Numbered from the stretch's first letter, positions 5,173-46,156 are shown. The stretch: 46,156 nucleotides of DNA from Patescibacteria group bacterium (GCA_041652935.1 JBAZGH010000002.1:18039-64194), one strand, 5' to 3'. Translations and numbers: made by a program. Notes: generated by a model not told the origin, from the sequence alone.

Positions 5173-6084
5173 ATGCTTAGAATAAAGAAAAATAAAAATC
5201 TTACTATCGCCGTCGGCCAGGCCTGGTTTCGGGCCTGGAAAGATTATAACGGGCATTTGAAAAAAATGGGCGTTAGGACTGTGGTGGTGGATTTATGGAA
5301 TCCTGGTTGGGCGCAGCGGCTGGAAAAAATTAAAGGTAAGGTTGACGCCTATCTATGGCACTCAGATACTTGGGAGGAAAATTATCGGCGCATCCACGAC
5401 CGTATTTTTTATATTGCCAATTTTATCAAAAAGCCGGTTTTTCCCGATTTAAATATGTATTATTCCTATAATGATAAAATTAAGCAGTATGAAATATTTA
5501 AGGCGAAGAAGCTGCCGATGATTGAAACTTATATGGCAATTGAAGAGGGGAGGGCGTTGGGATTGGCGGAGGAAATTAAATATCCAATAATCATTAAAGA
5601 CGCTTACAGCGCCGGCGGAGACGGAGTTTATAAAATTGAAAATAAAGCTGAGTTTAAAAAAACAGTTAAGCAAATTTTTTCCCCCTCCGGGTTTGGGAAA
5701 AAAGTCGGCTATGGCGGGATAAAAAATTATTTATACGCGCAAAAATTTATTCCCAATATGAAGCGGGATTTGCGCATTATTACCATTGGAGGCAAATGCG
5801 CCTGCGCTTACTGGCGCGTTGGAACGGAATGGAAGCATAATATCTGCAAAGGCGCTAAGCTTGATTTTAACGGCGTGCCCAAGCGGGCGATTGATTTTTG
5901 TGTTAAAATATCTAAAGAAAATAAATTCCATTGGATGAGCTACGATTTATTTATTTTGCCCAATGGAAAAATAAAGCTGATAGAATGGTCTTGTAATTTT
6001 GGAGTTAAGGGGCCGAGGGAGCAAGGGGTTGATGTCAGGGAGATGCAGATGGAGTATCTAGTAAAATTACTAACTTCTAATTAG
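5173..6084 (+). CDS. ATP-grasp domain protein (RimK-like)
   Basis: YPIIIKDAYSAGGDGVYKIENKAEF is a glycine-rich ATP-grasp loop, followed by a later DLRIITIGG segment. ATG 5173 is preferred over TTG 5158, which lies inside a repeat element. Confidence 0.6.
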   Translation: MLRIKKNKNLTIAVGQAWFRAWKDYNGHLKKMGVRTVVVDLWNPGWAQRLEKIKGKVDAYLWHSDTWEENYRRIHDRIFYIANFIKKPVFPDLNMYYSYNDKIKQYEIFKAKKLPMIETYMAIEEGRALGLAEEIKYPIIIKDAYSAGGDGVYKIENKAEFKKTVKQIFSPSGFGKKVGYGGIKNYLYAQKFIPNMKRDLRIITIGGKCACAYWRVGTEWKHNICKGAKLDFNGVPKRAIDFCVKISKENKFHWMSYDLFILPNGKIKLIEWSCNFGVKGPREQGVDVREMQMEYLVKLLTSN

Positions 6085-6107
6085 TTTAATTTAAATTAAT
6101 CCAATTG

Positions 6108-6268
6108 CACTAATTATTCTAATTAACCTATTAAATTACCAATTACCAATGCCCAATTTCCAATCAATGACCAATATTCAATAACCAATTGGAAATTGAT
6201 TTGGATATTGAATGGTCATTGGAAATTGGGCATTGAAAATTTTTGGGATAATTTGAGCAATTAGAAAT
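6108..6268. repeat. Intergenic palindromic element, family B
   Basis: caatgcccaatttccaatcaatgaccaatattcaataaccaatt pairs with aattgatttggatattgaatggtcattggaaattgggcattg. It shares a near-identical word string of about 38 nt with the element at 5017-5158. Confidence 0.8.
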
Positions 6269-6270
6269 TT

Positions 6271-7755
6271 ATGAAAATAGTATTTTTATCTGCCGAATGC
6301 GCGCCGTTTATTAAAGCGGGCGGGTTAGGGGATGTTGTCGGATCTTTACCGCCGGCGCTGGCAAAATTAAAAATTAAGCCGGTTATTTTTTTGCCGTTAA
6401 ATAAAGATGTTTCTGTTAAAAAATGGAAACTGCGAAAATTGCGTAAATTTAAAATCAGCTATGATGAAAAGAGCGAACAAGTTGAAATTTTTAAAACATT
6501 GCTTCCAAACTCAAAGATAGAAGTTTATTTTTTATCCAATCAAAAATATTTCAATAAAGAAGATGCTTATTCGGGAGGACTAAAAAAGTTTTTATTTTAC
6601 AGTTTAGCCAGCCTGGAGGCGATGAAAGTTTTATCCGCCCAAGGCGGAGTAAACAAAATAAAACCGGATATTATCCATTGCCATGACCATCAAACTGGCA
6701 TGACCTTTAATATTCTAAAATCTATTTACAAGAATGATAATTTTTTTAAACAGATAAAAACTGTTTTCACTATCCATAATTTAAATTATCAAGGCAAGAG
6801 AGACCCGGTTATTTTGGATAAAATTGACCATGATATTGAGAAATTAGCTTCCGTGGCTAATGATATTAAAGACGGCGATATAAATTTTATGGTGCAGGGG
6901 ATATTAAGCTCTGATGCAGTAACTACTGTCAGCCCGACTTATGCCAAAGAAATTTTAAAGCCTGAGCTTGGAGTCGGCCTGGATAAAATTTTAATAAAAA
7001 GAAAAAAGGATTTGAGGGGAATTATAAATGGAATTGATATGGATATGTTTAATCCGGTTACTGATAAAAACTTAAGGTATAATTATAACGCGCAAAATTT
7101 GGAAGGCAACACGTCCAAGCTACGCTGGGCGGGCAAGGCAAAAAATAAGGCGTGGCTACAGAAAAAAGTTGGGTTGCCAATTGATGCCAGTAAGCCATTG
7201 GTTGGTTTTATTTCGCGGTTAGTATGGCAGAAAGGAATTGATTTAATTACAGACGAGATGGTGGAGAATTTGGATTGCCAATTTATCGTTTTGGGAACCG
7301 GAGAAGATCGCTATCATAAGCATTTAAAACAATTAGCTAAAAAATATCCAGATAAATTTTCCGCCCAAATTACATTCAGCGTGGAAACAGCCAGCCAGAT
7401 TTACGCCGCCAGCGATATGTTTTTAATGCCTTCCCGCTATGAGCCCTGCGGGTTGGGGCAGATGATTGCGATGCGTTATGGCAGCGTGCCAATCGTGCGG
7501 GCGACTGGAGGATTGCGCGACACAGTCAGAGATTTTAGATTTTCGATTTCAGATTTTAGATTGGCAAACGGATTTGTTTTTGATAAATTCAGCAGTTTGG
7601 AATTGGAAAAAATTTTGCAACGAGCAATTAATATCTATCAAAATAATCCAAAAGTTTGGCGGAAACTGCAACTGAACGGCATGAAAGAAGATTTTTCATG
7701 GAAGAAACCGGCTAGAGAATATGTGAAATTGTATAAATCAGTAATAAGTAAATAG
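6271..7755 (+). CDS. glgA: Glycogen/starch synthase
   Basis: N-terminal MKIVFLSAECAPFIKAGGLGDVVGSLP (KxGGL motif) and C-terminal PSRYEPCGLGQMIAMRYGSVPIVRATGGLRDTV. Confidence 0.9.
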   Translation: MKIVFLSAECAPFIKAGGLGDVVGSLPPALAKLKIKPVIFLPLNKDVSVKKWKLRKLRKFKISYDEKSEQVEIFKTLLPNSKIEVYFLSNQKYFNKEDAYSGGLKKFLFYSLASLEAMKVLSAQGGVNKIKPDIIHCHDHQTGMTFNILKSIYKNDNFFKQIKTVFTIHNLNYQGKRDPVILDKIDHDIEKLASVANDIKDGDINFMVQGILSSDAVTTVSPTYAKEILKPELGVGLDKILIKRKKDLRGIINGIDMDMFNPVTDKNLRYNYNAQNLEGNTSKLRWAGKAKNKAWLQKKVGLPIDASKPLVGFISRLVWQKGIDLITDEMVENLDCQFIVLGTGEDRYHKHLKQLAKKYPDKFSAQITFSVETASQIYAASDMFLMPSRYEPCGLGQMIAMRYGSVPIVRATGGLRDTVRDFRFSISDFRLANGFVFDKFSSLELEKILQRAINIYQNNPKVWRKLQLNGMKEDFSWKKPAREYVKLYKSVISK

Positions 7756-34043: not shown

Positions 34044-35303
34044 ATGTACAAACTTCAAAAATTAAAAAACGGCGTCCGACTGATAACCATTCCCATGTCT
34101 GCCACGCAGACTTTTACTATTTTAGTGATGGTAGCGGCTGGTTCACGGCATGAGGATAAAGAAAATAACGGCATATCACATTTTTTAGAGCATATGTTTT
34201 TTAAAGGCACAAATAAGAGGCCGGACACGCTGGCGATTTCCAGCGAGCTGGATAAGATTGGGGGGGAGTATAATGCTTTTACCTCAAAAGAGTATACCGG
34301 TTATTATGCCAAAGTAGACAGCCGAAATGCCGGGACAGCGATTAATGTTATTGGCGATATTTTTCATAATTCAAAATTTGATTCGCGGGAGATAGAAAAG
34401 GAAAAGGGGGTAATTCTTGAAGAGATAAATATGTACGAGAATAATCCTTTTATCCATATTGATGATTTGTTTGAAGGATGCCTTTACGGGGATACGCCGG
34501 CCGGCTGGGATACTATCGGCACTAAAGAGAATATTAAAAAATTCAAAAGAAAGGATTTTATTGATTATTTAAATTCAAAATACCAGGGCAAAGACATAGT
34601 TGTTTGTTTGGCGGGAAATTTTCAAAAGGGAGATATTGGATTGGCAAAAAGATTATTTTCCAAAAAAGAAGCAGGAGAGAAAAATGAAGTTTATAAATAC
34701 ACGGAAACGCAGGGCGGGCCGCGGGTAAAAATAAAAAAGCAGAAAGTAAACCAGGTCAGCTTATCTCTGGGGGCAGGGGCGTACAGCTACTATGAAAAAA
34801 ATTATTACGCGGCCAAAGTGCTGGGGGTAATTTTGGGCGGGTCAATGAGTTCAAGGTTGTTTATTAAAATAAGAGAGAGGGGTCTGGCTTACCAGGCGCA
34901 TACCGAAGTTGAAGCATATAATGACAGCGGATATTTAACAACGGTAGCGGGAACTTCATATGATAAAGTTGGGCGGGTTATTAAAACAATTTTAAACGAG
35001 TATAAAAAAATAAAGTCAGCTGGCGTCGGAAATGAAGAATTAAAAAAAGCAAAAGACTACATCAAGGGCAAGACAATTTTACGGCTTGAATCTTCCGCTG
35101 AAACAGCCAGCTGGATCACTCGGCGGGAAATTCTTAATCAGAAAATATTAACTCCCGAAGATTATTTTAAAATTATAGACAAGATAAAACCGGGGGACTT
35201 GAAAATGGTTGCCGAAGAAATATTTAACACCAATAATTTGAATTTAGCCATTATCGGAGAAAATTTCCAGGAAAATAAGCTAAAACCCCTGTTAAAAATA
35301 TAG
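34044..35303 (+). CDS. M16-family zinc peptidase (insulinase/pitrilysin-like)
   Basis: HFLEHMFFKGT (HxxEH inverted zincin motif), a downstream EKGVILEEI glutamate region, and 419 aa. Confidence 0.85.
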   Translation: MYKLQKLKNGVRLITIPMSATQTFTILVMVAAGSRHEDKENNGISHFLEHMFFKGTNKRPDTLAISSELDKIGGEYNAFTSKEYTGYYAKVDSRNAGTAINVIGDIFHNSKFDSREIEKEKGVILEEINMYENNPFIHIDDLFEGCLYGDTPAGWDTIGTKENIKKFKRKDFIDYLNSKYQGKDIVVCLAGNFQKGDIGLAKRLFSKKEAGEKNEVYKYTETQGGPRVKIKKQKVNQVSLSLGAGAYSYYEKNYYAAKVLGVILGGSMSSRLFIKIRERGLAYQAHTEVEAYNDSGYLTTVAGTSYDKVGRVIKTILNEYKKIKSAGVGNEELKKAKDYIKGKTILRLESSAETASWITRREILNQKILTPEDYFKIIDKIKPGDLKMVAEEIFNTNNLNLAIIGENFQENKLKPLLKI

Positions 35304-36098
35304 ATTTTACTGAATAAAAATCTATCCGATATAAAATTTAATCTAATATTAGATAAAAATTACTCCAATGATATATGGGGTAATTTTTTGTTTTAATGCA
35401 TTTTAAAGCATTATAGTACCAACTAAAATCTATCCGATAGTGTTTTATAGAGGTTTTTGTGTAAAATAATTATCGAGAAAAAAAACATAAATTATAGCCG
35501 GCAGTTATAAATATTTATTAATCATCATTAATTCATGCAGTTAGTTTTATCAAAAAAAAGACATTGTTTTATTTTTGAATTTAATAATTTTTTATTATGT
35601 TAATTTTTACATTTTTTGTACTTATTATAATTATTTTTTGATTTATATCTACTCCACAGAAAGTAGTAAGCATTCAATCCGATATCAATTTTTAGCTAAT
35701 ATTAGACTGCCATTTTAAATTTTTAAAATTAAACTCAGGGATTATCTAATTATGGTTTTTTAGCGTTAAGTTTAAAGATGGGCGCGGAATACAAAATATA
35801 TCAGCATAAATTTGACGCATAAAAAGGGAAATAAAGCATTGATTCGCCGGCGGAAAAAACTACGACCGCCCCGCATTTTTATCCGGGAATAATTCAGCGG
35901 TTGAATATAGGAAATAAAATTGAAAAATATTTTTATCATTATCAAAACCATTATTCAGATTAGAGAGAATCGGGCATGCCGAGATTCGTTTTAAATAATC
36001 GTTTTAAATAATGAAGCATTATAATAATAAGATGGAATTTATCCGATACTCTAAAATACTTTATTTATTATAATAAATCGGATTTCAATAACCGTGGA

Positions 36099-36743
36099 GT
36101 GGACGGACGTAGAGTGTTTGTAGATAAATGGGATTATGTGAGGTTTTTGGAGAGTATGCGATATTTTAATCAAATTAATCCATTTGGTAGTTTTTACGAA
36201 CAAAGTTTTATAACTCAAAATAGAGATAATTTAAATTATGTTCCTCGGAGCAACTATAGTTGCTCCGAGGAACTAGATAAACCATTAATAGAAATTATTG
36301 CCTATTGCTTGAATTCGAATCATTATCACTTGTTAGTGAAACAGAATATAGAAAATGGTATATCAAAATTTACACAAAAGGTCATGGCTGGATATACTCG
36401 TTATTTTAATAATAAATATAATAGATATGGCTCGTTATTCCAAGGAAAGTTCAAAGCTAAAGAAATAAAATCAACATACGGATTAATTAAGCTGTCTATC
36501 TATGTAAATTGTAATGCAGAAATACATGACATAGCAAAGAAGGAAAATTGGTTATGGAGTAGCTGTGGAGAGTATAGTTCAGTTCCTTCGAGCAACTATA
36601 GTTGCTCGAAGGAACAAGCGAAGGAACAAATAAAGGAAGTTTTATCTGAATTTAACAATGCTCAAGAATATATAAACTTTTGCAATGAATTAATTCCAGA
36701 GATAAGAATAATAAAAAATTTAGAGAAATATGGATTAGAGTAA
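36099..36743 (+). CDS. Y1/HuH transposase (IS200/IS605 TnpA-like or REP-associated tyrosine transposase), possibly 5'-truncated
   Basis: HuH motif NSNHYHLLV and the Tyr helix LSIYVNCNA. The conserved N-terminal strand continues in frame upstream (..FNNRGVDGRRVF) but with no ATG. The only start candidate is GTG at 36099. Confidence 0.6.
   Translation: MDGRRVFVDKWDYVRFLESMRYFNQINPFGSFYEQSFITQNRDNLNYVPRSNYSCSEELDKPLIEIIAYCLNSNHYHLLVKQNIENGISKFTQKVMAGYTRYFNNKYNRYGSLFQGKFKAKEIKSTYGLIKLSIYVNCNAEIHDIAKKENWLWSSCGEYSSVPSSNYSCSKEQAKEQIKEVLSEFNNAQEYINFCNELIPEIRIIKNLEKYGLE
36240..36273. repeat. Perfect 34-bp palindrome P1 inside the transposase ORF
   Basis: GTTCCTCGGAGCAACTATAGTTGCTCCGAGGAAC equals its own reverse complement. 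It is translated in frame as VPRSNYSCSEE. Confidence 0.95.
36582..36615. repeat. Perfect 34-bp palindrome P2 inside the transposase ORF
   Basis: GTTCCTTCGAGCAACTATAGTTGCTCGAAGGAAC equals its own reverse complement. It is translated in frame as VPSSNYSCSKE. It differs from P1 by two compensatory base-pair swaps. Confidence 0.95.
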
Positions 36744-36755
36744 AAATTTCAAAAA

Positions 36756-36786
36756 AGCACCCAGTCCTCTGCGAGGACTGGGTGCT
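36756..36786 (-). terminator. Strong hairpin (14-bp perfect stem, 3-nt loop) with the U-run on the minus strand
   Basis: agcacccagtcctc-tgc-gaggactgggtgct. On the minus strand the stem is followed by tttttt. On the plus strand it follows the transposase stop by 13 nt but has no T-run. Confidence 0.5.
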
Positions 36787-37178
36787 AAATTTATGGAATA
36801 ATTTAAATTAAAAGCCAGAAAATTATTAGAAGCATTGTGAAATAAAAGATAAAATATATCGGATACATTTGTGGAAAACTTATAATTTATTTTAAGTTTG
36901 CAAATAATATGTGGGGACAATTTAAAAGTTAAAAGCAACATATCAAATCATATCTTTTGTTTTTAGTAGAAATTTTATTGATTATATGATATTTATGGGG
37001 TTTTCTTTGCTTCCTGATTATGCTTTTAACTGTATCGGATAGATAAATTATTATAGTTTTATTTATTGCGGCAAGTAGGCAAAAAATGTTATAATTAATC
37101 TAACTTATAAAATTTATCCGATACTATATTTTAAATTAACTTTGTTTAATTTTTTTAATAAACTTGGTTATATTCCCC

Positions 37179-40100
37179 ATGCAAAAAGGAGAGCCAGAAG
37201 AAAAAATAATAAACGGCAGCCAACCGGCTGATGTTTTTGATACGAACGATTCCAACCTGAATCAAAGTTTTGAATTTTCCGGGGATAAATACGACTATAT
37301 TTCCTTGGCAGATGCAGCTAAATATACAAAGTTCAGCCAGGATTACATTTCACTTTTAGCGCGCAATAAAAAGATGCCCGCCAAGAAGTTCGGGCGCAAC
37401 TGGAAAGTGAGGATGGTTGATGTAAACGAGTACATAAAAAGGATTGAAAAAAAACAGGTCCAGCGGGAGGTTAAAAAGGAGCTTTCCGGAGCGACAAAAG
37501 CGGAGCGGGGAATAGCCAAGGCGGTTAATGCCATCAGCCCATTCAATGGGGATTCTTACTCTTTGTCAAAAGCGCATCTGACTAATTTTGCGCGCCATAA
37601 ATTCCAGACAGTATTGGCCAGTTTTTTAATTTTAACGACCATAATGTTTTCCTGCTTTTTCTGGCTTTCCCCGACTTATGCTTCAATGGCGGAAAGGGGA
37701 CTGCAGAAAGCGGCGGCTAAAACAGTCCAAGCGATATCCGGCGGAGCTGAAACTTTTAAAGAAAAATCAGTTGAAGCGATAATAGCAGCGTCTGAGATTG
37801 CTGGCTCCAGAATAGCTAAAATTGATAAAGCTTATAATAACCCTGAAAGCGGTTTTGGCCCGGAGATAAAAAAAGCCGGAGCCAGGACAGTAATCGGCGC
37901 CGAACAGTTCGGGTCTTTTATGGAAAATGGCACCTCATATCTTGAACAAAGGGCGCTGTCCAGGCAGGGCTATATAGCCGGCGTATTTGAGATTTCAGTT
38001 TTAGAAACAATAAACAATGTAAATTATTTTTCCAGTGATTTAGCATCTGCCGCTAAACAAATTTTCAGCTCTCCGTTAAAGATTGTTCCTGCTCCGGTTA
38101 GGTATGCGCTAAACGGGGGGGCGGACGCCATAAACGGATTAATCTCAAGCGGAGCCGAAAAGCTGGAGAAGAACAAAGATGCCTTAGTTAGAAACAAAAC
38201 GAGCCAAGTCGCCGGCGCTACGGAAAAGGGAAATAGCGGAAAAAGCTTCTCGGATAATTTTTTCAGTTTCATGAAAGAAACCGCGCAAGGGCAGAAAAAG
38301 CTATCCCAAGCAGTTCAATCTAAAAGCAACGATGGCTTAAAGAAAATGAGCGGCTACCAACGGAATGCCGGTTTGGCAATTTTAGAAACTTTAGCCCGCG
38401 CTACCAATAGCATTGGAAATTTCGTTAATAATAAAATTGCCAGCGGTAAATCACGGGTGTTGGGAATTCAGGAGAACGCGGAAAATACCGCCTCGGGAGT
38501 TTGGAACGGAGTCGGCAGCGGAATACTGGCAGTCAATAACAGCTTAATTAACGCGAAAGATGCCTGGAGCAACGAAGAAGTTGAATCAAAACGTTCCCTG
38601 GCAGTTTTATGGGCAACCGCTCTTGATTATTTGCTGCCGGATTCGTTGAAAGAAAAAATTGCCCGCGATTCCGGGCTTGAGCCGGCGCAAGTTGGGGAGG
38701 CGTCAAAAGAGCCGGTTATTGTAATCGGCGACAGCAGCGGAAGTACAACAGTCATTACCCGAACCGCCAGCTTGCCGCGGAGTTTTGCCATAGATAGTAT
38801 TATCGGCAGCCCGACGGTAACCGGAGATTTGACGGTAGAAGGTGGAGTGACCGCGGGCGGAGATGTTGTCCTAGAAAAAACTTTAACTGTCGGCGGCCGG
38901 TCTGATTTTAAAGCGCCGATATATTCTTCTTCCGGAGACTTTATCATTGATGATAATTTAACCGCATATGGATCAATTACCGGCAGCTCGCTTAATATAA
39001 GCAACGCGGCAATAGTAAATACTCTCCAAGTATCCGGCCAGGCAAATGTGGGCGGGCTATTATCAGCGCAGGATTTAACCGTCAGCAATAATGCTTCAGT
39101 CGGAGGAACGTTTACAGTGGCCGGCCAGTTTATTTCCCAAAATATTTCTGCCACGCGCTATATCGCAGCCGGCTATTCTTTAAGTTCGGGCGGAAGCTTA
39201 ACTGTTTCAAAAGACGCTTCCATAGGAGAAGATTTAACAGTGGGCAATGATTTAATCGTGGAGGGCAGCATTAGAACTGACGGCACTTTAACTGTTAATA
39301 GGGGAGCTTCCATAACCGGCAATACAATAATTACCGGAGACGCGACTATTACCGGGAGCTTAACGCTTAGTTCGTGGACGACTCCGTACGCACAGGTAAA
39401 GGTAGTCGCCAAATCGGGAACCGGCTACTCCACCATTGCCGCCGCCCTTAACTCAATTACCGACGCCTCGGCAACCAAAAGATATTTAATTCAGGTAATG
39501 CCGGGGGAATATAACGAGCAAGTTAATTTGAAATCTTATGTTGATATAGCCGGAGAGGGAGCCGATACTACTGTAATCAGCCAGGCCGACGCAGATGTTA
39601 TAACCGCCAGCAGCACAACCTCAACCGCCAGCTCAACCATCAGCGGATTAACTGCAAAGATAACCGCCGCTACTGCTGCCCGGTCGCTGGTTAATCTTGC
39701 AAACGCCTCTGACATTGTTATAAAAAATATTGATTTGAAATATGAAAGCGGAACCGCCGGCTATGGCGTTTACGCAACCAGCAGTTCGCCGGTAATAGAG
39801 AACGTAAACATGAGCGGCGGGTCTTTAAATTATGGCTTATATCAAAACGGCGATAACTCCGAAAGCGGAACCATAGTAAGAAATTCCCGAATCAGCGCCG
39901 TGTCCGACATTTATGTTGCCGGAACAAACAGTACCGTCTACTCTTACGACAATAAATTATCCGGAACTTACAGTTTTGATCTGGCGACTTCAACGGCAAT
40001 AGTGGAATCAACCAATGACGCGTACCAGCTTGCCACCTCAACCGGCATCGCTTTTACCGGAACTTTCAGGGATTTAACCAACGCCCGCGAATATGCCGAG

Positions 40101-43100
40101 ACTGGAAATTCTTTAGCGGTCGGCGATATAATTTATTTAGTTAGCGCGGAAACAGTAGCCAAGGCCGACGCATCCGACGCGACAAAATTACCGGCTATTG
40201 GAATTGTAATAAAAGATCTGGGCGTTAACAGAGTACTCGTTAAAAATAATGGCCAATTCTATAATTCAAGCGCCAGTTATGTCGCGAATCAAACTTACTA
40301 TATAGACGACGGCGGAGCCGCTACCACCACGCCTTATGCCGGGCGGTATTCGCAGGCGATAGGAGTTGCTAAAAGCGACAAAGCGATTGAGCTTTCTTTT
40401 TCCCGAAGCAGCGCTTTGTCGGTGATAGAAAATACAACCGCCTCGGCAATGCTCATAAATCAGCAGGGAAGCGGAAACATATTTCAGTTGCAGGATAACG
40501 GCGCGAATGTAATGACTATTTTTGACGGCGGAAACATAAGCATCGGCACCAGCTCTTCGGATAATTTATTAACCCTTTGGGGAGCAACCAGCGGAACCGG
40601 CGCTAGTTTATTAAGCATAGCCGACAGCGCTTCCACCACACTGCTGACTATTTTAGACAACGGATATATCGGAATCGGAACCTCTACGCCAATAGTTTCT
40701 TTAGATATTTACGCGACCGACGCTATACGGCTTCCGGCAGGCACAACTGCCGAACGGCCGACCGGAGGAAATGGCATGCTTCGTTTTAATATTGACTCTA
40801 ATACTTTTGAAGGATATAGCGGTTCTTCGTGGTCAGCAATAGGGGGAAGTTTAATTGATGCTGACCAGGACACTTATATTTTAGCTGAAAGTTCAGGCGG
40901 AGCTGATGAGGATACTTTATTTTTCTATAACGCCGGGCAGGAAAAAATGCGGCTAACCAGCGACGGCTACCTCGGGATCGGGACTACCAGCCCGTACGCG
41001 TTGTTAACCGTCTGGGCTACTTCTACCGATGCCGCCTTATTCAGCGCGATGGATACGGCTTCCACGACGGTCTTTACGATTTTGCCAAATGGAAATGTCG
41101 GGCTGGGAACCACGACGCCTAGCGCCCAATTAAGCATCGCCGGCGCGGACAACAAAATAAGGTTATCGCATTCAGCGGGAAATTACGGGGAAATTTACGC
41201 CGACAGTTTGGGGAATTTAAACTTATCTGCCGCTAACGACATATATGTAAGAAATAATTTAGTTCCTGTTCCGGGAAGCACGCATACAGTCGGGTCTGTA
41301 ACAAATTATTGGACGCACGGCTACTTTGATGAATTAACAGTAAATACTTTGGGCGTCGCCTCCACAACCGTTTCCGGAACGCTAACTTCCAGCTTTACTA
41401 TAAATTCGGACGCGGAAGGCGATGAAGATTCTTCATTGATATTTTATCGGGGCGGCGGTGTTTTGGGGAATGCAACGCTTAACTGGAAGTCTGCAAGCGA
41501 CCGGTTTGAATTCGGGGATGCTTCAAATCCTTACGAATTATATGTGCACGGAAATTTAACGGTCGCTTCCACAACGGCGACTTCAACAATTTCCACCGGC
41601 GGATTCGCGGTCGGCACTGACCAGTTTCTCGTTCAACAAACAAGTGGCAGGGTAGGCATAGGCACAACTTCTCCTTCCGTAGCTTTTGCAATAGACGCTA
41701 CGGACGCAATGGTTATTCCGGTGGGCACAACCGCCCAGAGGCCGGACACCGGTTATACCGGCATGTTGCGCTATAATAGTGATAACACCACTTTTGAAGG
41801 TTATAATGGCAGTGTCTGGAGCGGATTGGGGGGTGTAATTGATGTTGATCAGGATACTTACATAATTGCGGAAAGCTCATCCGGCGCGGACGAAGATGTT
41901 CTCTTTTTCTATACTGCAAACAGCGAGAAGATGCGTCTTACCAGCGGCGGATACTTAGGGATAGGAACTACTTCGCCGGACGCGGTGCTTCATATTGCCA
42001 GTTCCACCGGCGGAACTTTAATTTTAGACGACAGCGGCGGAGTCGCCAATGACCGGCTGATGGAGTTTGATATGGACGGCGGAGCTTTAACCATCAGAAG
42101 CTTAAACGACGCTTTAACAACTAATATTGATAATATCTTAGTTTTAGATAACGGCACCGGCAATGTTAGGGTGGGAAATTATTTTGAAGTCGGCGATGAA
42201 AATAACGACAGCAACAAATCGGTTTACATTGACCGCAGTTTTACCGGCACAGCCAACGCTTTTGGCATAGCAAATGTCGGAACAATTACCGGCGCCGCGA
42301 ATTCCAATATTTATGGCGCGTATTTTGCCAATAATTTTACCGAAGCCGGCAGTGGAACGCACGCTTTATTTGCGCAGGGATATTTTGCTTCTTCTACAAT
42401 TACCGCTGACGGAGCTACCATAACCGACGCGATGACACTATATATCGGCGGAGCTCCAAGCGGAGCAACTAATAATTACGGATTATATGTCGCGCCTTCC
42501 GTTGGATATTCCGTGCCCGCGTTAATCACGGACAGTTCAAATAATGTCGGAATCGGGACAACGAGCCCGTCTAAAATGTTTTCCGTCCACGGAGAAGCGT
42601 ATTTTAGCGCGACCACTACCATTGAAGGCCAGGTTCTAGCCCAGACGCTTTCTTCTTATGACCCCAATACCGGAGTGATGCCGGCGCCGGCATACAGTTT
42701 TTACAGCGACGGCGACACGGGCATGTTTAATTCTGAAGCTAACAATTTGGCGTTCGCGACGAACGGCCAGATGCGCGTTAATCTTTTTGACACGGCCATG
42801 CAGGGCGCTGTTGCCGGCACTTTCCGCCTTAATCATTCAGCCGCCGGCACGGAAGGCGCGCCCACTTACGCGTTTTGGGGGAGCAATAGCGATACCGGCA
42901 TGTTTTCGCCGGAAGACGGCGCGCTTGCGTTTACCGCCAATGCCACTGAAAAAATAAGGATTACAAGTGATGGCAACGTCGGCATCGGCACTATCTCCCC
43001 AACCTACAATTTGGACGTTACCGGCAACGCTCATTTCACCGGACTTGTTGACGCTTCCCACTTTATCGCCACCTCCACTACCGCGACCTCTACTTTCTAC

Positions 43101-46100
43101 GGCGGTTTTGCCGCGGGCAATAATGCTGGCTTGATCGTTAACCAAGCGGCGCCGGCGAATAGCTTATATATCAATTCGGCGGGGAATGTGGGAGTGGGGA
43201 CGGCTGATATGATAGGGCAATTAACCGTCAAGGGTGACCTTTCAATTTATACGGATTATGACGGCTTGGCAACAATAAAATTTTCCAGAGAGACAACTGG
43301 CGCGCCTTCTTATGTCGGCAACATTTCGTATAATCATAATTCAAACAGCATGGGTTTTGTTGTTAACGGCGACTCAAGAATGGCAATAAACTCCTCCGGC
43401 AATGTCGGTATTGGAACTAGTACGCCTTGGGCACAATTATCAGTAGAGGGGCAAGGAAGCAAGCCGGAGTTTCTAGTAACCGGAACAGATATGACTCCAG
43501 ATTTTATAGTAGATGTGAATGGCAACGTCGGCATCGGCACCACTTCTCCCTACGCCAAATTATCCGTAGTCGGCCAGACTGTTTCCGAATACTTCACCGC
43601 CACCTCCACTTCCGCCACTTCTACTTTCCCTTACTTAGCATCAACCCAATCCAACCTCGGCACAGTGGTAGGAGGCACCTGGCAGGGAACAGAGGTTGGC
43701 GTAAACTACGGCGGAACAGGAACCTCAACAGCTCCCTCTTACGGTTATGTTTTAGTCGGCAATGCCACGAATGATGGCTATGATTATATAGCCACCTCCA
43801 CTTTCGGAGGCGGCGGCGGTACAATGACCAGCTTTATTTTATCAGATAGTTCCAATACCGAAACGATTGAGAATAGCGATACTTTAACAATTCAAGGAAG
43901 CGCTAATGAAATAACAGTTCTAGTCGGGGCGACTGATACCGCCACTATTTCTTTGCCGGATGTTGTTTATATCGGAGATTCCGGAAAATTAGGCCGGGAC
44001 GCTGATAATCTGATAGACTTTACGACTGATAATCAAATAATGTTCAGGACTAACGCCGTTGATAACAGATTAGTGCTTGATAACGCCGGCAGAATCGGCA
44101 TCGGCACCTCTACCATGTCTTCCATGTTTACGGTTTGGGGCGACACTTCTGCTACCGGCGCATCTTTATTCAGCGTTGTAGATAATGCCTCCAGCACCCT
44201 GATGACAATTTTGGATACGGGCAGGATCGGTATTGGCACTACCAGTCCTTTAGCTACTTTTTCTGTCCAGGGCACGGCTAATCAAGATATATTTACAATC
44301 GCTTCTTCTACCGGAGCAAGCATATTTAAAGTATCCAGCTTGGGCAAGGTAAGCATCGGCACCGGAGGCGGTAATTATGAAATAACGCCCACTGACGGCT
44401 CGCTAGGAATTGACGGTTATCTTGGCGTCGGCACTTCTACGCCGGCTGAAGAATTGGGAGTTGCCGGAGATATTTATCTTAGCGGTTCTTTGAAGTTTGC
44501 TGACGGAAGTTCAATGAATGCGGCCGGAGGCGTATGGTTATCTAATGGCAGTGATTATTACTATAATGCCGGCAACGTCGGCATCGGCACCACCTCTCCC
44601 TACGCCAAACTCTCGGTAGTCGGCCAGACTGTGTCAGAATATTTTACAGCTACTTCCACCTCCGCCTCCTCCACTTTCCCAATGCTGGTTTCTACTTACA
44701 GCAATGTCGGCACGGTGCAAGCCGGCACTTGGAACGGAACCGCAATCAGCCACGAATACGGCGGTTTGGAATTTGACGCCTCGGCCATCACCACCGGCGG
44801 AATGATCCGCGGAGCCAGCTCCGGAGTAATGGAGATTTTAGGATTGGGAACAGCCGGACAGATACTGGGCTCTGTTAACGGACAATTAGGATATATTTCT
44901 ACTTCTACCATGCCGTTTATTTCAAACGCGCTTACCAAGGGATATTTTTTAGTCGGCGATGACAGCGGATTGGCTCAAGCTACTTCAACAATGTTTATTA
45001 GTTCTACGGGGAATGTGGGGATAGGCGATGCAAATCCTGATCAGTTACTTAATATACATCAATCGGCAGGAAGCAGTGCTTCATATGCAAGATTTACAAC
45101 CGCAGAAAGTGAGTCGGGTTCGGGAAATGGATTCTTAATAGGTTCACACAGTAATTTAAACGCTTTTGTCACCAACTATGAAAATGGGGATTTGTATTTA
45201 ACAACTAACGGAGTTTCAAATCAACTAGTTTTGGATTCCGCTGGGGGTGTTGGGGTTGGTACAGCGGCGCCAACTTCTCCGGGAAATTCTAGTAAATTTT
45301 TAACAATCTCTGGAGCTAATCATGCAGGACTAGTTTTGATAGATGAGGGTGCTAGTCGAGAATGGGAAATACAAGCTGATAATGGGTTGTATTTTATGGA
45401 AGGACAAGGGTCTTTAGCTGTACATATGTTAATAGATGCCACTGGCAACTTAGGCATCGGCACCACCTCCCCATGGGCGCAATTATCAGTAGAGGGGCAA
45501 GGAAGCAAGCCGGAGTTTTTAGTTACCGGAACTGATATGGCACCTGATTTTATTGTAGATGTGAACGGCAACGTCGGCATCGGCTCCACCACCCCGGGCG
45601 CGCTCTTCTCTGTCGGCTCGGCGGGAACCGGCTTGCAGATTAATTCCAGCGGAACAATAACTTCCGGCACCTGGAACGGAGCGGCGGTCGGCATCGCCTA
45701 CGGCGGCACCGGATTAACTACTACTCCCACCGACGGCCAGCTCTTAATCGGCAAAACAGACGGAACTTACAATTTGACTACCCTTACAGCCGGGTCAAAC
45801 GTAACAATTACTGAAGGCGACGGGACAATAACAATAGCTTCTGCTGGTGGCGGCGGCGCCGGAAGCAATTACGGCGCGGTTGGTGCGCTCGCCTTTTACG
45901 CTACCGCCGGCACTACGGCAACCGGCACGGACGTCAGCTTATTAAAATGGGACAGTTCTTTCGGCCGGCTGGGGATCGGCTCTTCCACCCCAAATTACCT
46001 TTTGTCAATTGCATCTTCCACCGCCACTAATTTTTTGCGCATCGCCACTTCTTCATCTGGAGATTTGTTCACGGTTACCAATACACAAATCACCTCAAAA

Positions 46101-46156
46101 TTGCCGGTTAACATGAATACGACCGGCGATGTGCAGATCGGCTCTGATTTGGTATT
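37179..46156 (+). CDS. Giant surface protein (at least 2992 codons, 3' end outside the window): N-terminal HTH, one TM helix, beta-helix-like repeats, pectin-lyase-like segment and many tail-fibre-like GNVGIGTTSP modules
   Basis: My manual translation of the frame starting at ATG 37179 (positions divisible by 3) found no stop up to nt 46156. An in-frame stop lies upstream at 37137. The protein sense is coherent throughout: the HTH-like ISLADAAKYTKFSQDYISLLARNKKMPAKKFGRNW at about 37293-37440, the TM helix FQTVLASFLILTTIMFSCFFWLS at 37602-37670, and repeated ...GNVGIGTTSPYAKLSVVGQT... units. The listed minus-strand ORFs from 37343 to 45694 are shadows of this gene. Confidence 0.85.
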   Translation, partial: MQKGEPEEKIINGSQPADVFDTNDSNLNQSFEFSGDKYDYISLADAAKYTKFSQDYISLLARNKKMPAKKFGRNWKVRMVDVNEYIKRIEKKQVQREVKKELSGATKAERGIAKAVNAISPFNGDSYSLSKAHLTNFARHKFQTVLASFLILTTIMFSCFFWLSPTYASMAERGLQKAAAKTVQAISGGAETFKEKSVEAIIAASEIAGSRIAKIDKAYNNPESGFGPEIKKAGARTVIGAEQFGSFMENGTSYLEQRALSRQGYIAGVFEISVLETINNVNYFSSDLASAAKQIFSSPLKIVPAPVRYALNGGADAINGLISSGAEKLEKNKDALVRNKTSQVAGATEKGNSGKSFSDNFFSFMKETAQGQKKLSQAVQSKSNDGLKKMSGYQRNAGLAILETLARATNSIGNFVNNKIASGKSRVLGIQENAENTASGVWNGVGSGILAVNNSLINAKDAWSNEEVESKRSLAVLWATALDYLLPDSLKEKIARDSGLEPAQVGEASKEPVIVIGDSSGSTTVITRTASLPRSFAIDSIIGSPTVTGDLTVEGGVTAGGDVVLEKTLTVGGRSDFKAPIYSSSGDFIIDDNLTAYGSITGSSLNISNAAIVNTLQVSGQANVGGLLSAQDLTVSNNASVGGTFTVAGQFISQNISATRYIAAGYSLSSGGSLTVSKDASIGEDLTVGNDLIVEGSIRTDGTLTVNRGASITGNTIITGDATITGSLTLSSWTTPYAQVKVVAKSGTGYSTIAAALNSITDASATKRYLIQVMPGEYNEQVNLKSYVDIAGEGADTTVISQADADVITASSTTSTASSTISGLTAKITAATAARSLVNLANASDIVIKNIDLKYESGTAGYGVYATSSSPVIENVNMSGGSLNYGLYQNGDNSESGTIVRNSRISAVSDIYVAGTNSTVYSYDNKLSGTYSFDLATSTAIVESTNDAYQLATSTGIAFTGTFRDLTNAREYAETGNSLAVGDIIYLVSAETVAKADASDATKLPAIGIVIKDLGVNRVLVKNNGQFYNSSASYVANQTYYIDDGGAATTTPYAGRYSQAIGVAKSDKAIELSFSRSSALSVIENTTASAMLINQQGSGNIFQLQDNGANVMTIFDGGNISIGTSSSDNLLTLWGATSGTGASLLSIADSASTTLLTILDNGYIGIGTSTPIVSLDIYATDAIRLPAGTTAERPTGGNGMLRFNIDSNTFEGYSGSSWSAIGGSLIDADQDTYILAESSGGADEDTLFFYNAGQEKMRLTSDGYLGIGTTSPYALLTVWATSTDAALFSAMDTASTTVFTILPNGNVGLGTTTPSAQLSIAGADNKIRLSHSAGNYGEIYADSLGNLNLSAANDIYVRNNLVPVPGSTHTVGSVTNYWTHGYFDELTVNTLGVASTTVSGTLTSSFTINSDAEGDEDSSLIFYRGGGVLGNATLNWKSASDRFEFGDASNPYELYVHGNLTVASTTATSTISTGGFAVGTDQFLVQQTSGRVGIGTTSPSVAFAIDATDAMVIPVGTTAQRPDTGYTGMLRYNSDNTTFEGYNGSVWSGLGGVIDVDQDTYIIAESSSGADEDVLFFYTANSEKMRLTSGGYLGIGTTSPDAVLHIASSTGGTLILDDSGGVANDRLMEFDMDGGALTIRSLNDALTTNIDNILVLDNGTGNVRVGNYFEVGDENNDSNKSVYIDRSFTGTANAFGIANVGTITGAANSNIYGAYFANNFTEAGSGTHALFAQGYFASSTITADGATITDAMTLYIGGAPSGATNNYGLYVAPSVGYSVPALITDSSNNVGIGTTSPSKMFSVHGEAYFSATTTIEGQVLAQTLSSYDPNTGVMPAPAYSFYSDGDTGMFNSEANNLAFATNGQMRVNLFDTAMQGAVAGTFRLNHSAAGTEGAPTYAFWGSNSDTGMFSPEDGALAFTANATEKIRITSDGNVGIGTISPTYNLDVTGNAHFTGLVDASHFIATSTTATSTFYGGFAAGNNAGLIVNQAAPANSLYINSAGNVGVGTADMIGQLTVKGDLSIYTDYDGLATIKFSRETTGAPSYVGNISYNHNSNSMGFVVNGDSRMAINSSGNVGIGTSTPWAQLSVEGQGSKPEFLVTGTDMTPDFIVDVNGNVGIGTTSPYAKLSVVGQTVSEYFTATSTSATSTFPYLASTQSNLGTVVGGTWQGTEVGVNYGGTGTSTAPSYGYVLVGNATNDGYDYIATSTFGGGGGTMTSFILSDSSNTETIENSDTLTIQGSANEITVLVGATDTATISLPDVVYIGDSGKLGRDADNLIDFTTDNQIMFRTNAVDNRLVLDNAGRIGIGTSTMSSMFTVWGDTSATGASLFSVVDNASSTLMTILDTGRIGIGTTSPLATFSVQGTANQDIFTIASSTGASIFKVSSLGKVSIGTGGGNYEITPTDGSLGIDGYLGVGTSTPAEELGVAGDIYLSGSLKFADGSSMNAAGGVWLSNGSDYYYNAGNVGIGTTSPYAKLSVVGQTVSEYFTATSTSASSTFPMLVSTYSNVGTVQAGTWNGTAISHEYGGLEFDASAITTGGMIRGASSGVMEILGLGTAGQILGSVNGQLGYISTSTMPFISNALTKGYFLVGDDSGLAQATSTMFISSTGNVGIGDANPDQLLNIHQSAGSSASYARFTTAESESGSGNGFLIGSHSNLNAFVTNYENGDLYLTTNGVSNQLVLDSAGGVGVGTAAPTSPGNSSKFLTISGANHAGLVLIDEGASREWEIQADNGLYFMEGQGSLAVHMLIDATGNLGIGTTSPWAQLSVEGQGSKPEFLVTGTDMAPDFIVDVNGNVGIGSTTPGALFSVGSAGTGLQINSSGTITSGTWNGAAVGIAYGGTGLTTTPTDGQLLIGKTDGTYNLTTLTAGSNVTITEGDGTITIASAGGGGAGSNYGAVGALAFYATAGTTATGTDVSLLKWDSSFGRLGIGSSTPNYLLSIASSTATNFLRIATSSSGDLFTVTNTQITSKLPVNMNTTGDVQIGSDLV

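Follow-up and report, generated by a model that had tools for sequence, protein, structure and literature searches.

REP/RAYT systems, built on repetitive extragenic palindromes (REPs) and tyrosine transposases associated with REPs (RAYTs), are defined by extragenic hairpins, and the classical REPs are found outside genes in tens to hundreds of copies per genome. Rickettsia palindromic elements (RPEs), another group of palindromic DNA, measure about 100-150 nt. A RAYT (TnpA_REP) gene that has its cognate REP hairpins or bacterial interspersed mosaic element (BIME) hairpins on either side is called a REPtron (Nunvar 2010, PMC2817692; Ton-Hoang 2012, PMC3333891; Messing 2012, PMC3479197; Corneloup 2021, PMC8266576). 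REPtrons were defined by the same kinds of evidence as those used below, namely bracketing of the open reading frame (ORF), gene specificity and co-divergence (PMC2817692, PMC3333891, PMC8266576). An inverted REP doublet that forms one long hairpin is known as a REPIN (Bertels & Rainey 2011, PMC3116915). The present analysis concerns a stretch of 46,156 nt from a Patescibacteria group bacterium (GCA_041652935.1), hereafter the window, in which a gene for a Y1/HUH protein contains two perfect 34-nt palindromes, P1 and P2. P1 and P2 are, with reasonable probability, the cognate DNA hairpins that a RAYT-like Y1/HUH family of Patescibacteria carries in frame in two disordered loops of the enzyme's gene. 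The cognate hairpins would here lie inside reading frames, most consistently that of the enzyme itself. The main RAYT/REP papers and the literature searched were found to describe neither REPs within the reading frame of a RAYT nor comparable elements in the candidate phyla radiation (CPR), which is no proof of novelty.

Two in-frame palindromes around a catalytic core

The ORF that carries P1 and P2 (Table 1) matches the Pfam family PF01797 (Y1_Tnp) over profile positions 31-118 with 32.9 bits (cut-off 23; E = 7.9e-8). An earlier note on this DNA, made from the sequence alone, had described the two palindromes, and its description is confirmed: read from the sequence, each is exactly self-complementary, the only differences between the two are at positions 7/8 and, in mirror image, 27/28, with the base pairs preserved, and their starts are spaced 342 nt apart in the same frame of an ORF that remains open across both. 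The palindromes also bracket the catalytic core, as had been claimed, with the HUH codons and the catalytic tyrosine codon in between. P1 stands 16 codons ahead of the HUH codons, at a family position termed S1, which is a hypervariable linker preceding the HUH strand. P2 stands 26 codons past the tyrosine codon, behind the Tyr helix and the WSS(Y) motif, at a position (S2b) that is rarer than the usual second in-ORF position of relatives.

Table 1. Coordinates of the Y1/HUH gene, its palindromes and associated features in the window
Feature	Position	Strand	Remarks
Ancestral start remnant (ATG GAA TTT ...)	36032-36073	+	now in another frame; closed by TAA at 36071-36073
Y1/HUH (Y1_Tnp) ORF	36099-36743	+	214 codons from GTG; match to the family hidden Markov model (HMM) covers profile positions 5-221
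P1	36240-36273	.	GTTCCTCGGAGCAACTATAGTTGCTCCGAGGAAC; perfect 34-nt palindrome, in frame as VPRSNYSCSEE; site S1
HUH motif codons CAT TAT CAC (HYH)	36321-36329	+	H103 and H105 invariant in the 32-homologue alignment
Catalytic Tyr codon TAT (in IYVNCNA)	36501-36503	+	Y163 invariant in the 32-homologue alignment
P2	36582-36615	.	GTTCCTTCGAGCAACTATAGTTGCTCGAAGGAAC; perfect 34-nt palindrome, in frame as VPSSNYSCSKE; site S2b
GC-rich hairpin	36756-36786	.	AGCACCCAGTCCTC TGC GAGGACTGGGTGCT; 13 nt past the stop; terminator-like, unrelated to P1/P2

Apart from P1 and P2, no perfect palindrome in the window exceeds 16 nt, and our own arithmetic (~46,156 x 4^-17) gives for the window a chance expectation of roughly 3e-6 for one perfect palindrome of 34 nt. 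As single-stranded DNA, both are predicted to form, on either strand, a 15-bp stem closed by a TATA loop (-17.5 to -18.4 kcal/mol; z = -8.4 to -10.2), and 0 of 200 shuffles were equally stable. No GTAG tag is present in P1, P2 or their flanks, and scans of the whole window with Rfam (gathering thresholds) and for tRNAs gave no matches. An assembly artefact was considered and dismissed, since a second, independent metagenome assembly has both palindromes, and dozens of independent metagenome-assembled genomes (MAGs) show the pattern to which they belong.

The closest intact homologue, P0002 (239 aa), is encoded on a contig from another metagenome (L080), in another genomic context, and it carries both P1 and P2 unchanged, the difference between them included. 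Within the palindromes, identity to the L080 gene reaches 68/68 nt, and 22/22 at third codon positions, as against 74% and 54%, respectively, in the gene outside the palindromes; at these background rates, such matches would have a probability of 1.4e-9 (all bases) and 1.4e-6 (third positions). In a sliding comparison of the window and L080, identity peaks twice, with P1 and P2 at the centres of the peaks. The immediate flanks of both palindromes have diverged by substitutions and a 12-nt indel, and the identity is therefore not merely that of a recent conversion tract. Altogether, these comparisons place the constraint on P1 and P2 at the level of nucleic acid, both being invariant while the surrounding codons diverge. 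The earlier proposal that selection acts on the hairpin, and not just on the peptide, thus gains support from 100% palindrome identity in a 74%-identical homologue, and also from relatives that carry unrelated yet equally perfect palindromes at the same positions. The L080 gene was also considered as a syntenic orthologue, which is ruled out, as its upstream gene is not in the window. It further contains, after P2, a 27-nt in-frame insertion (L080 1495-1521, between the equivalents of window positions 36636 and 36637) with CTCGGAGCAAC, a half-copy of a P1 arm; the window lacks this insertion.

At the level of the protein, the P1 position falls, in an alignment of 32 homologues, within a hypervariable linker of ~20-35 residues between PIGSLY and LVxIIAYCLNPNHYH, and many of the linker peptides in this alignment resemble translated palindromes. 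The comparison of homologues that the earlier note had proposed therefore identifies the peptide segments as hypervariable, and not as conserved structural elements. The structure prediction that the note had also suggested was made for the homologue P0002, in place of the window protein; in this AlphaFold model (mean pLDDT, the predicted local distance difference test, 86.6), the equivalents of the P1 peptide (P0002 residues 63-73, pLDDT ~53) and of the P2 peptide (residues 178-188, pLDDT 59-76) are both predicted as low-confidence coil. A fold search with the same model gives as best PDB match 4ER8, the E. coli TnpA_REP with a REP hairpin (E = 4.8e-6; template modelling score 0.66 on the target), followed by the IS608 and ISDra2 TnpA proteins, while a sequence search of the PDB with the family profile gave no match at E <= 0.01. 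By analogy with TnpA_REP on its REP hairpin and with IS608 TnpA, the protein would bind, and probably cut and rejoin, hairpins in single-stranded DNA.

Hairpins at recurrent places in the family

The sample of the family consisted of 79 loci, drawn from species-representative genomes that are almost exclusively Patescibacteria MAGs; stretches encoding a relative number at least 550. These loci and the contigs of close homologues together gave 91 genes, mostly on MAG contigs, which were mapped onto the family HMM with up to 10 kb of flanking DNA covered on each side per gene. Perfect hairpins were called with fixed thresholds, requiring a stem of 9 bp or more and a loop no longer than 5 nt. Among the 91 genes, 65 such hairpins lie upstream of the start, 57 at S1 (profile columns 61-74), 26 directly past the Tyr helix at a position termed S2a (columns 160-165) and 64 downstream of the stop. 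S2b (column 181) accounts for two, those of the window and L080, and a single hairpin, in L066, sits at column 221, that is, at the stop codon and the C-terminal end of the profile. No hairpin was found at any other place in the ORFs of the 91 genes. The resulting density is 2.5 hairpins per kb in Y1 genes, against 0.19 per kb in 1.1 Mb of flanking DNA. The foot of the hairpin reads ACTT[AG]G in most relatives, and a few (L056, L058 and L079) have GTAG within the stem.

The upstream hairpin ends at a median of 17 nt before the start codon, and the downstream one follows the stop at a median of 4 nt. Such positions are typical of RNA or transcription elements, and it could be proposed that the hairpins act mainly in this way, as a 5' insulator or stabiliser, as internal attenuators or RNase III sites, and as a terminator, which together would keep the expression of a potentially harmful nuclease low. 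Stable stems form in mRNA regardless, and IS200, which uses hairpins for expression control, provides a precedent. This explanation is nevertheless unlikely, as a purely structural role in RNA requires neither the same sequence at four sites nor differences between paralogues nor co-divergence with the protein, and it has to accommodate random orientation and copies in unrelated genes. Mismatches read on the sense strand (18 G.T vs 12 A.C) are also without the asymmetry that would betray a G.U bias.

The hairpins are, moreover, specific to the gene in which they lie. The in-ORF hairpin and a flanking hairpin of the same gene have a 10-mer in common in 51 of 57 genes, as do S1 and S2 in 15 of 16, as against 2.6% of random pairs between loci; paralogues within one locus never share one. 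Covariation was assessed at sites picked by the conserved outer motif alone (CTT[AG]G-N11-C[TC]AAG), with no bias on the inner stem: at least four perfect inner pairs are present at 105 of 139 sites, with 29 different inner stems. Uniqueness of the palindromes and a lack of covariation had been named earlier as signs against selection on the hairpin; on the first point, no copy of P1 or P2 beyond that of the homologue was found in the window or in a metagenome scan, and on the second, the inner stems do covary among relatives. The perfect dyad symmetry might also suggest operators for a dimeric regulator that binds double-stranded DNA, yet this is extremely improbable, given that the inner stems covary and no half-site is conserved, that the sites lie inside ORFs and even housekeeping genes, that no regulator gene is associated with them, and that the palindromes extend over 34-52 bp with no unpaired spacer. 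Finally, hairpin type tracks protein phylogeny: the hairpin class of a gene, either the small ACTTGG type or the long doublet, matches that of its nearest protein neighbour in 33/37 and 19/27 cases.

In close relatives (L081, L103, L073), each long palindrome is a doublet, made up of a small hairpin and its inverted copy. The doublet of L081 reads GCTGTTCGGAACAGC-TATA-GCTGTTCCGAACAGC, and the S1 doublet of L103 reads [GCGGT TCA ACCGC]-spacer-[GCGGT TGA ACCGC], its second site being the same but with CGA/TCG loops. By our own reading of the sequence, the 15-nt arms of P1 and P2 are weakly self-complementary (6 of 7 pairs, plus a C.C mismatch), and they may be degenerate small hairpins, with positions 7/8 at the place of the unit's apical loop (CGG/CCG in P1, TCG/CGA in P2). 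Each 34-nt palindrome would then be REPIN-like, consisting of two inverted copies of a small hairpin unit, and it would be in the apical loop of this unit that P1 and P2 differ. Since the swaps between P1 and P2 fall at the apical-loop position of the relatives, they could have originated by inverted duplication. The description of these swaps as compensatory in the earlier note is therefore right in that pairing is kept in the 34-nt hairpin, while the changes themselves could stem from such a duplication and not from pair-by-pair selection.

The same anatomy lends itself to an explanation in which the palindromes have no function and perpetuate themselves by intrastrand template switching wherever the protein tolerates them, the compensation between P1 and P2 being that of a doublet-forming inverted duplication. 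In line with this, doublets are internally consistent, the two L103 sites differ only in the loops of the small hairpins, and loop orientation flips freely. Fast turnover would also account for the unrelated palindromes at the same positions in syntenic copies of the window gene, such as the perfect GGGTGCTCGGCACCC-AGCGG-GGGTGCCGAGCACCC at the P1 position of L101 and the equally perfect TGCGCTCCGACTGCG-AATGG-CGCAGTCGGAGCGCA at the P2 position of L104. Template switching does nothing against symmetric drift, but neither P1 nor P2 has changed across 26% divergence, and the mechanism leaves the matching flanking copies, the paralogue specificity and the co-divergence with the protein unexplained, so that it must be regarded as very doubtful. 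If P1 and P2 are instead cognate hairpins of the enzyme, their DNA would be kept intact either by selection for recognition by the enzyme, with self-binding or autoregulation as a possibility, or by enzyme-mediated correction of copies.

Dispersed copies and resemblance to REPtrons

Hairpin copies of relatives also occur more than 250 nt from the Y1 gene, and many of these dispersed copies lie in frame inside long ORFs. In L030 (~1598), the hairpin encodes part of ELGSSTPKREPDSH in the NAD-dependent DNA ligase LigA, at a place where the structures 1B04 and 4LH6 show a gap, and in L032 a hairpin encodes GGSTSIMEV in an Elp3 homologue, where 6IAZ has a gap. It thus appears that the elements are occasionally mobile in relatives and tolerated as translated loop insertions. 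These in-frame copies in housekeeping genes also support the analogy with RPEs that the earlier note had drawn, palindromic DNA being in both cases translated in frame as extra loop residues. Unlike RPEs, the Patescibacteria elements measure 23-52 nt and are tied to a specific Y1 gene, and their most regular host is the gene of the putative mobilising enzyme itself.

In-frame hairpins that match the local Y1 gene are found in L030 at ~1598, in L032 at ~7548 and ~11225, in L003 at ~491, in L024 at ~3569, in L066 at 5811-7080, in L020 at ~5773, in L005 at ~5797 and in L056 at ~19921. Copies in Elp3 occur in two genomes, and one ORF of 241 aa holds three copies. Further putative hosts, assigned by reading of the ORF alone, are methyltransferase-like, prepilin-peptidase-like, PriA-like, MnmA-like and giant LamG-like proteins and an FtsK-like linker.

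Several of the dispersed copies share the codon phase of S1 and S2 (ELGSSTPK in LigA, GGSTSIMEVEPP in Elp3), the MnmA-like copy being in another phase. The in-ORF copies would persist through this one preferred phase, which yields flexible, hydrophilic loop peptides that the fold tolerates. Phase is also the main attraction of a further explanation, according to which S1 and S2 would be recombination sites comparable to the left and right ends (LE/RE) of an insertion sequence, used for in-frame excision or exchange of the catalytic core as a self-inactivating switch or for cassette shuffling. The two sites bracket the core from the HUH motif to the tyrosine, and their centre-to-centre distance is a multiple of 3 in 15 of the 16 genes having both (P = 7.7e-7). 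Around P1, furthermore, the window is closer to L080 than to the syntenic L101, yet its catalytic core is slightly closer to the syntenic copies (nucleotide identity of 76% to L101 and 75% to L104, against 72% to L080, which makes the three roughly equidistant from it). This explanation is quite improbable all the same: the shared phase of several insertions in unrelated genes means that peptide tolerance could explain the spacing, most genes have S1 but no S2, and no core-deleted homologue was noticed among the hits, in which no systematic search for one was made.

Comparison with REPtrons reveals both likenesses and differences. As in REPtrons, the protein has a predicted Y1/HUH fold (the structure closest to the P0002 model being 4ER8), gene-specific hairpins of the relatives directly bracket the ORF (the window copy being without flanking copies), enzyme and hairpin diverge together, and gene copies are few and stable in chromosomal position. 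Unlike in REPtrons, the Patescibacteria hairpins also lie in frame within the enzyme's own ORF at conserved positions, their stems are perfect and mostly without a 5' GTAG (or CGTC) tag, and they are of low copy number and many of them intragenic, with no orientation rule. The protein also differs from RAYTs by a C-terminal helical extension of ~55 aa. The relatives' inverted doublets resemble REPINs, and P1 and P2 have the same TATA-centred layout, whereas the Patescibacteria doublets do not occur in tens to hundreds of dispersed copies and sit in coding sequence, the arms of P1 and P2 being only weakly self-complementary. With IS200/IS605 elements, the family shares the Pfam Y1_Tnp domain, hairpins near both gene ends and, as next-best folds, those of the IS608 and ISDra2 TnpA proteins. 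It differs from them in that no identical multi-copy elements are seen, paralogues at the same locus have diverged from one another and differ in their hairpins, the window copy has syntenic counterparts in L101, L102 and L104, hairpin orientation is variable and internal copies lie in frame.

The earlier note had left three options for P1 and P2, of which REP-like substrates inside the enzyme's own gene fits best, on account of bracketing, gene specificity, co-divergence and occasional dispersal; cis-regulation and excision are less favoured. Several observations weigh against this reading. Dispersal is rare, the copies more than 250 nt from the Y1 gene numbering 15 in 816 kb of flanks. The 14-nt core GCAACTATAGTTGC has no further occurrence in the window with up to 2 mismatches allowed, and no P1/P2-like hairpin was found upstream or downstream of the window ORF. 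A metagenome scan with GAGCAACTATAGTTGCTC returned 14 loci, of which only the homologue's contig (L094, the same as that of L080) carries P1/P2; the others contain unrelated palindromes or terminators and have no Y1 gene. Dispersal of P1/P2 is therefore unsupported, and the data do not support mobility in their lineage; the search for further palindromes that the earlier note had suggested yielded, for P1 and P2 themselves, no copy beyond those of the homologue. No orientation rule of the LE/RE kind holds among upstream, S1, S2 and downstream copies, about half of which are in the same and half in inverted orientation, although Y1 enzymes are strand-specific. At S2a, the hairpin peptide HRLGxxxSKSS replaces HGIAKKENWxWSS, which is of similar length, and no residues are added, so that simple insertion into a permissive loop is no explanation there. 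The window protein scores 17.8 bits against the RAYT equivalog model NCBIfam NF047646, whose cut-off is 80. Lastly, the window gene, without a start codon and the YH motif, may perhaps encode no active enzyme; the gene for any enzyme that acts on P1/P2 may therefore lie in another part of the genome.

A wider proposal, which is possible but tentative, holds that a RAYT-like system, having moved into coding sequence, is widespread in Patescibacteria, that the in-ORF hairpin serves as a self-recognition site for autoregulation or for exchange or excision of the core, and that its hairpins colonise housekeeping genes, as an adaptation to genomes with almost no intergenic DNA. P1 and P2 offer a clean natural example in which the same DNA has to satisfy two constraints together, those of a nucleic-acid hairpin and of a translated peptide, and they hint at a route by which such elements could persist in the tiny, gene-dense genomes of the CPR. 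The hairpins would also give rise to lineage-specific loop insertions in housekeeping proteins of the CPR, LigA and Elp3 among them, and they probably complicate assembly or annotation at these Y1 genes. A small protein and a 34-nt oligonucleotide, moreover, make a simple pair for asking if a Y1 nuclease targets its own gene.

The eroded window gene and its surroundings

As judged from sequence comparison, the window gene has an eroded N-terminus, and the chromosomal position at which it sits is conserved. No ATG, GTG or TTG is in frame ahead of the GTG at 36099, though homology reaches ~36054, and the gene-caller product P0001 (195 aa) starts at the ATG at 36156. The N-terminal region (36012-36120) has received a 7-codon insertion containing the 16-nt palindrome ATTTATTATAATAAAT (36063-36078), and the near-invariant YYHIYNRG reads YFIYYNKSDFNNRG in the window gene, with loss of the conserved YH motif. 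It is on the out-of-frame ancestral ATG, the 7-codon insertion and the YH loss that the diagnosis of erosion is based. In a comparison of the cores of the window, L080, L101 and L104, third codon positions are far more diverged than first and second positions, and the window gene and its syntenic copies therefore coded for protein through most of their past.

On one side of the gene is an M16 peptidase gene (34044-35303), on the other a giant ORF that starts at 37179 and continues to the window end. The order M16 peptidase, Y1, giant ORF is shared with L101/L102, where the Y1 product is P0045 (149 aa), and with L104/L105, where it is P0033 (135 aa); the synteny of the window copy thus extends to three or more of the other assemblies sampled. 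Each of the three syntenic copies is N-terminally eroded, those of L101 and L104 further than that of the window. The GC-rich hairpin past the stop is kept at the same place in L104 (3680-3710), with a different loop. L099, from a related genome, carries two Y1 paralogues 8 kb apart, the intact P0004 (10001-10693), whose S1 palindrome is AGCGCTCCAAGCGCTCC-TGCT-GGAGCGCTTGGAGCGCT, and the eroded syntenic P0045 (18017-18466), and their palindromes differ. The giant ORF (37179-46156) comprises at least 2,992 codons, runs off the window end and contains a 16-nt GC-rich perfect palindrome, ATGCCGGCGCCGGCAT, at 42678-42693; its counterpart in L101 (3,846 aa) has a faint HTH_17 match.

The surroundings of the Y1 gene also contain a local repeat, the 9-mer TATC[CG]GATA, of which all six copies in the window lie within 1.8 kb around the gene, 0.43 being expected in the window by chance. 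Copies are found at 35323, 35431, 36040 (+) and 37115 (+), and at 36857 and 37033 (-), with a variant at 35677, and one of them overlaps ancestral codons 3-6 of the Y1 gene. Six (or five) copies are present at equivalent positions in L099/L101, L102, L104 and L105, and there are no others in those 7-20 kb. The repeat could be either a regulator site or a remnant of a small hairpin.

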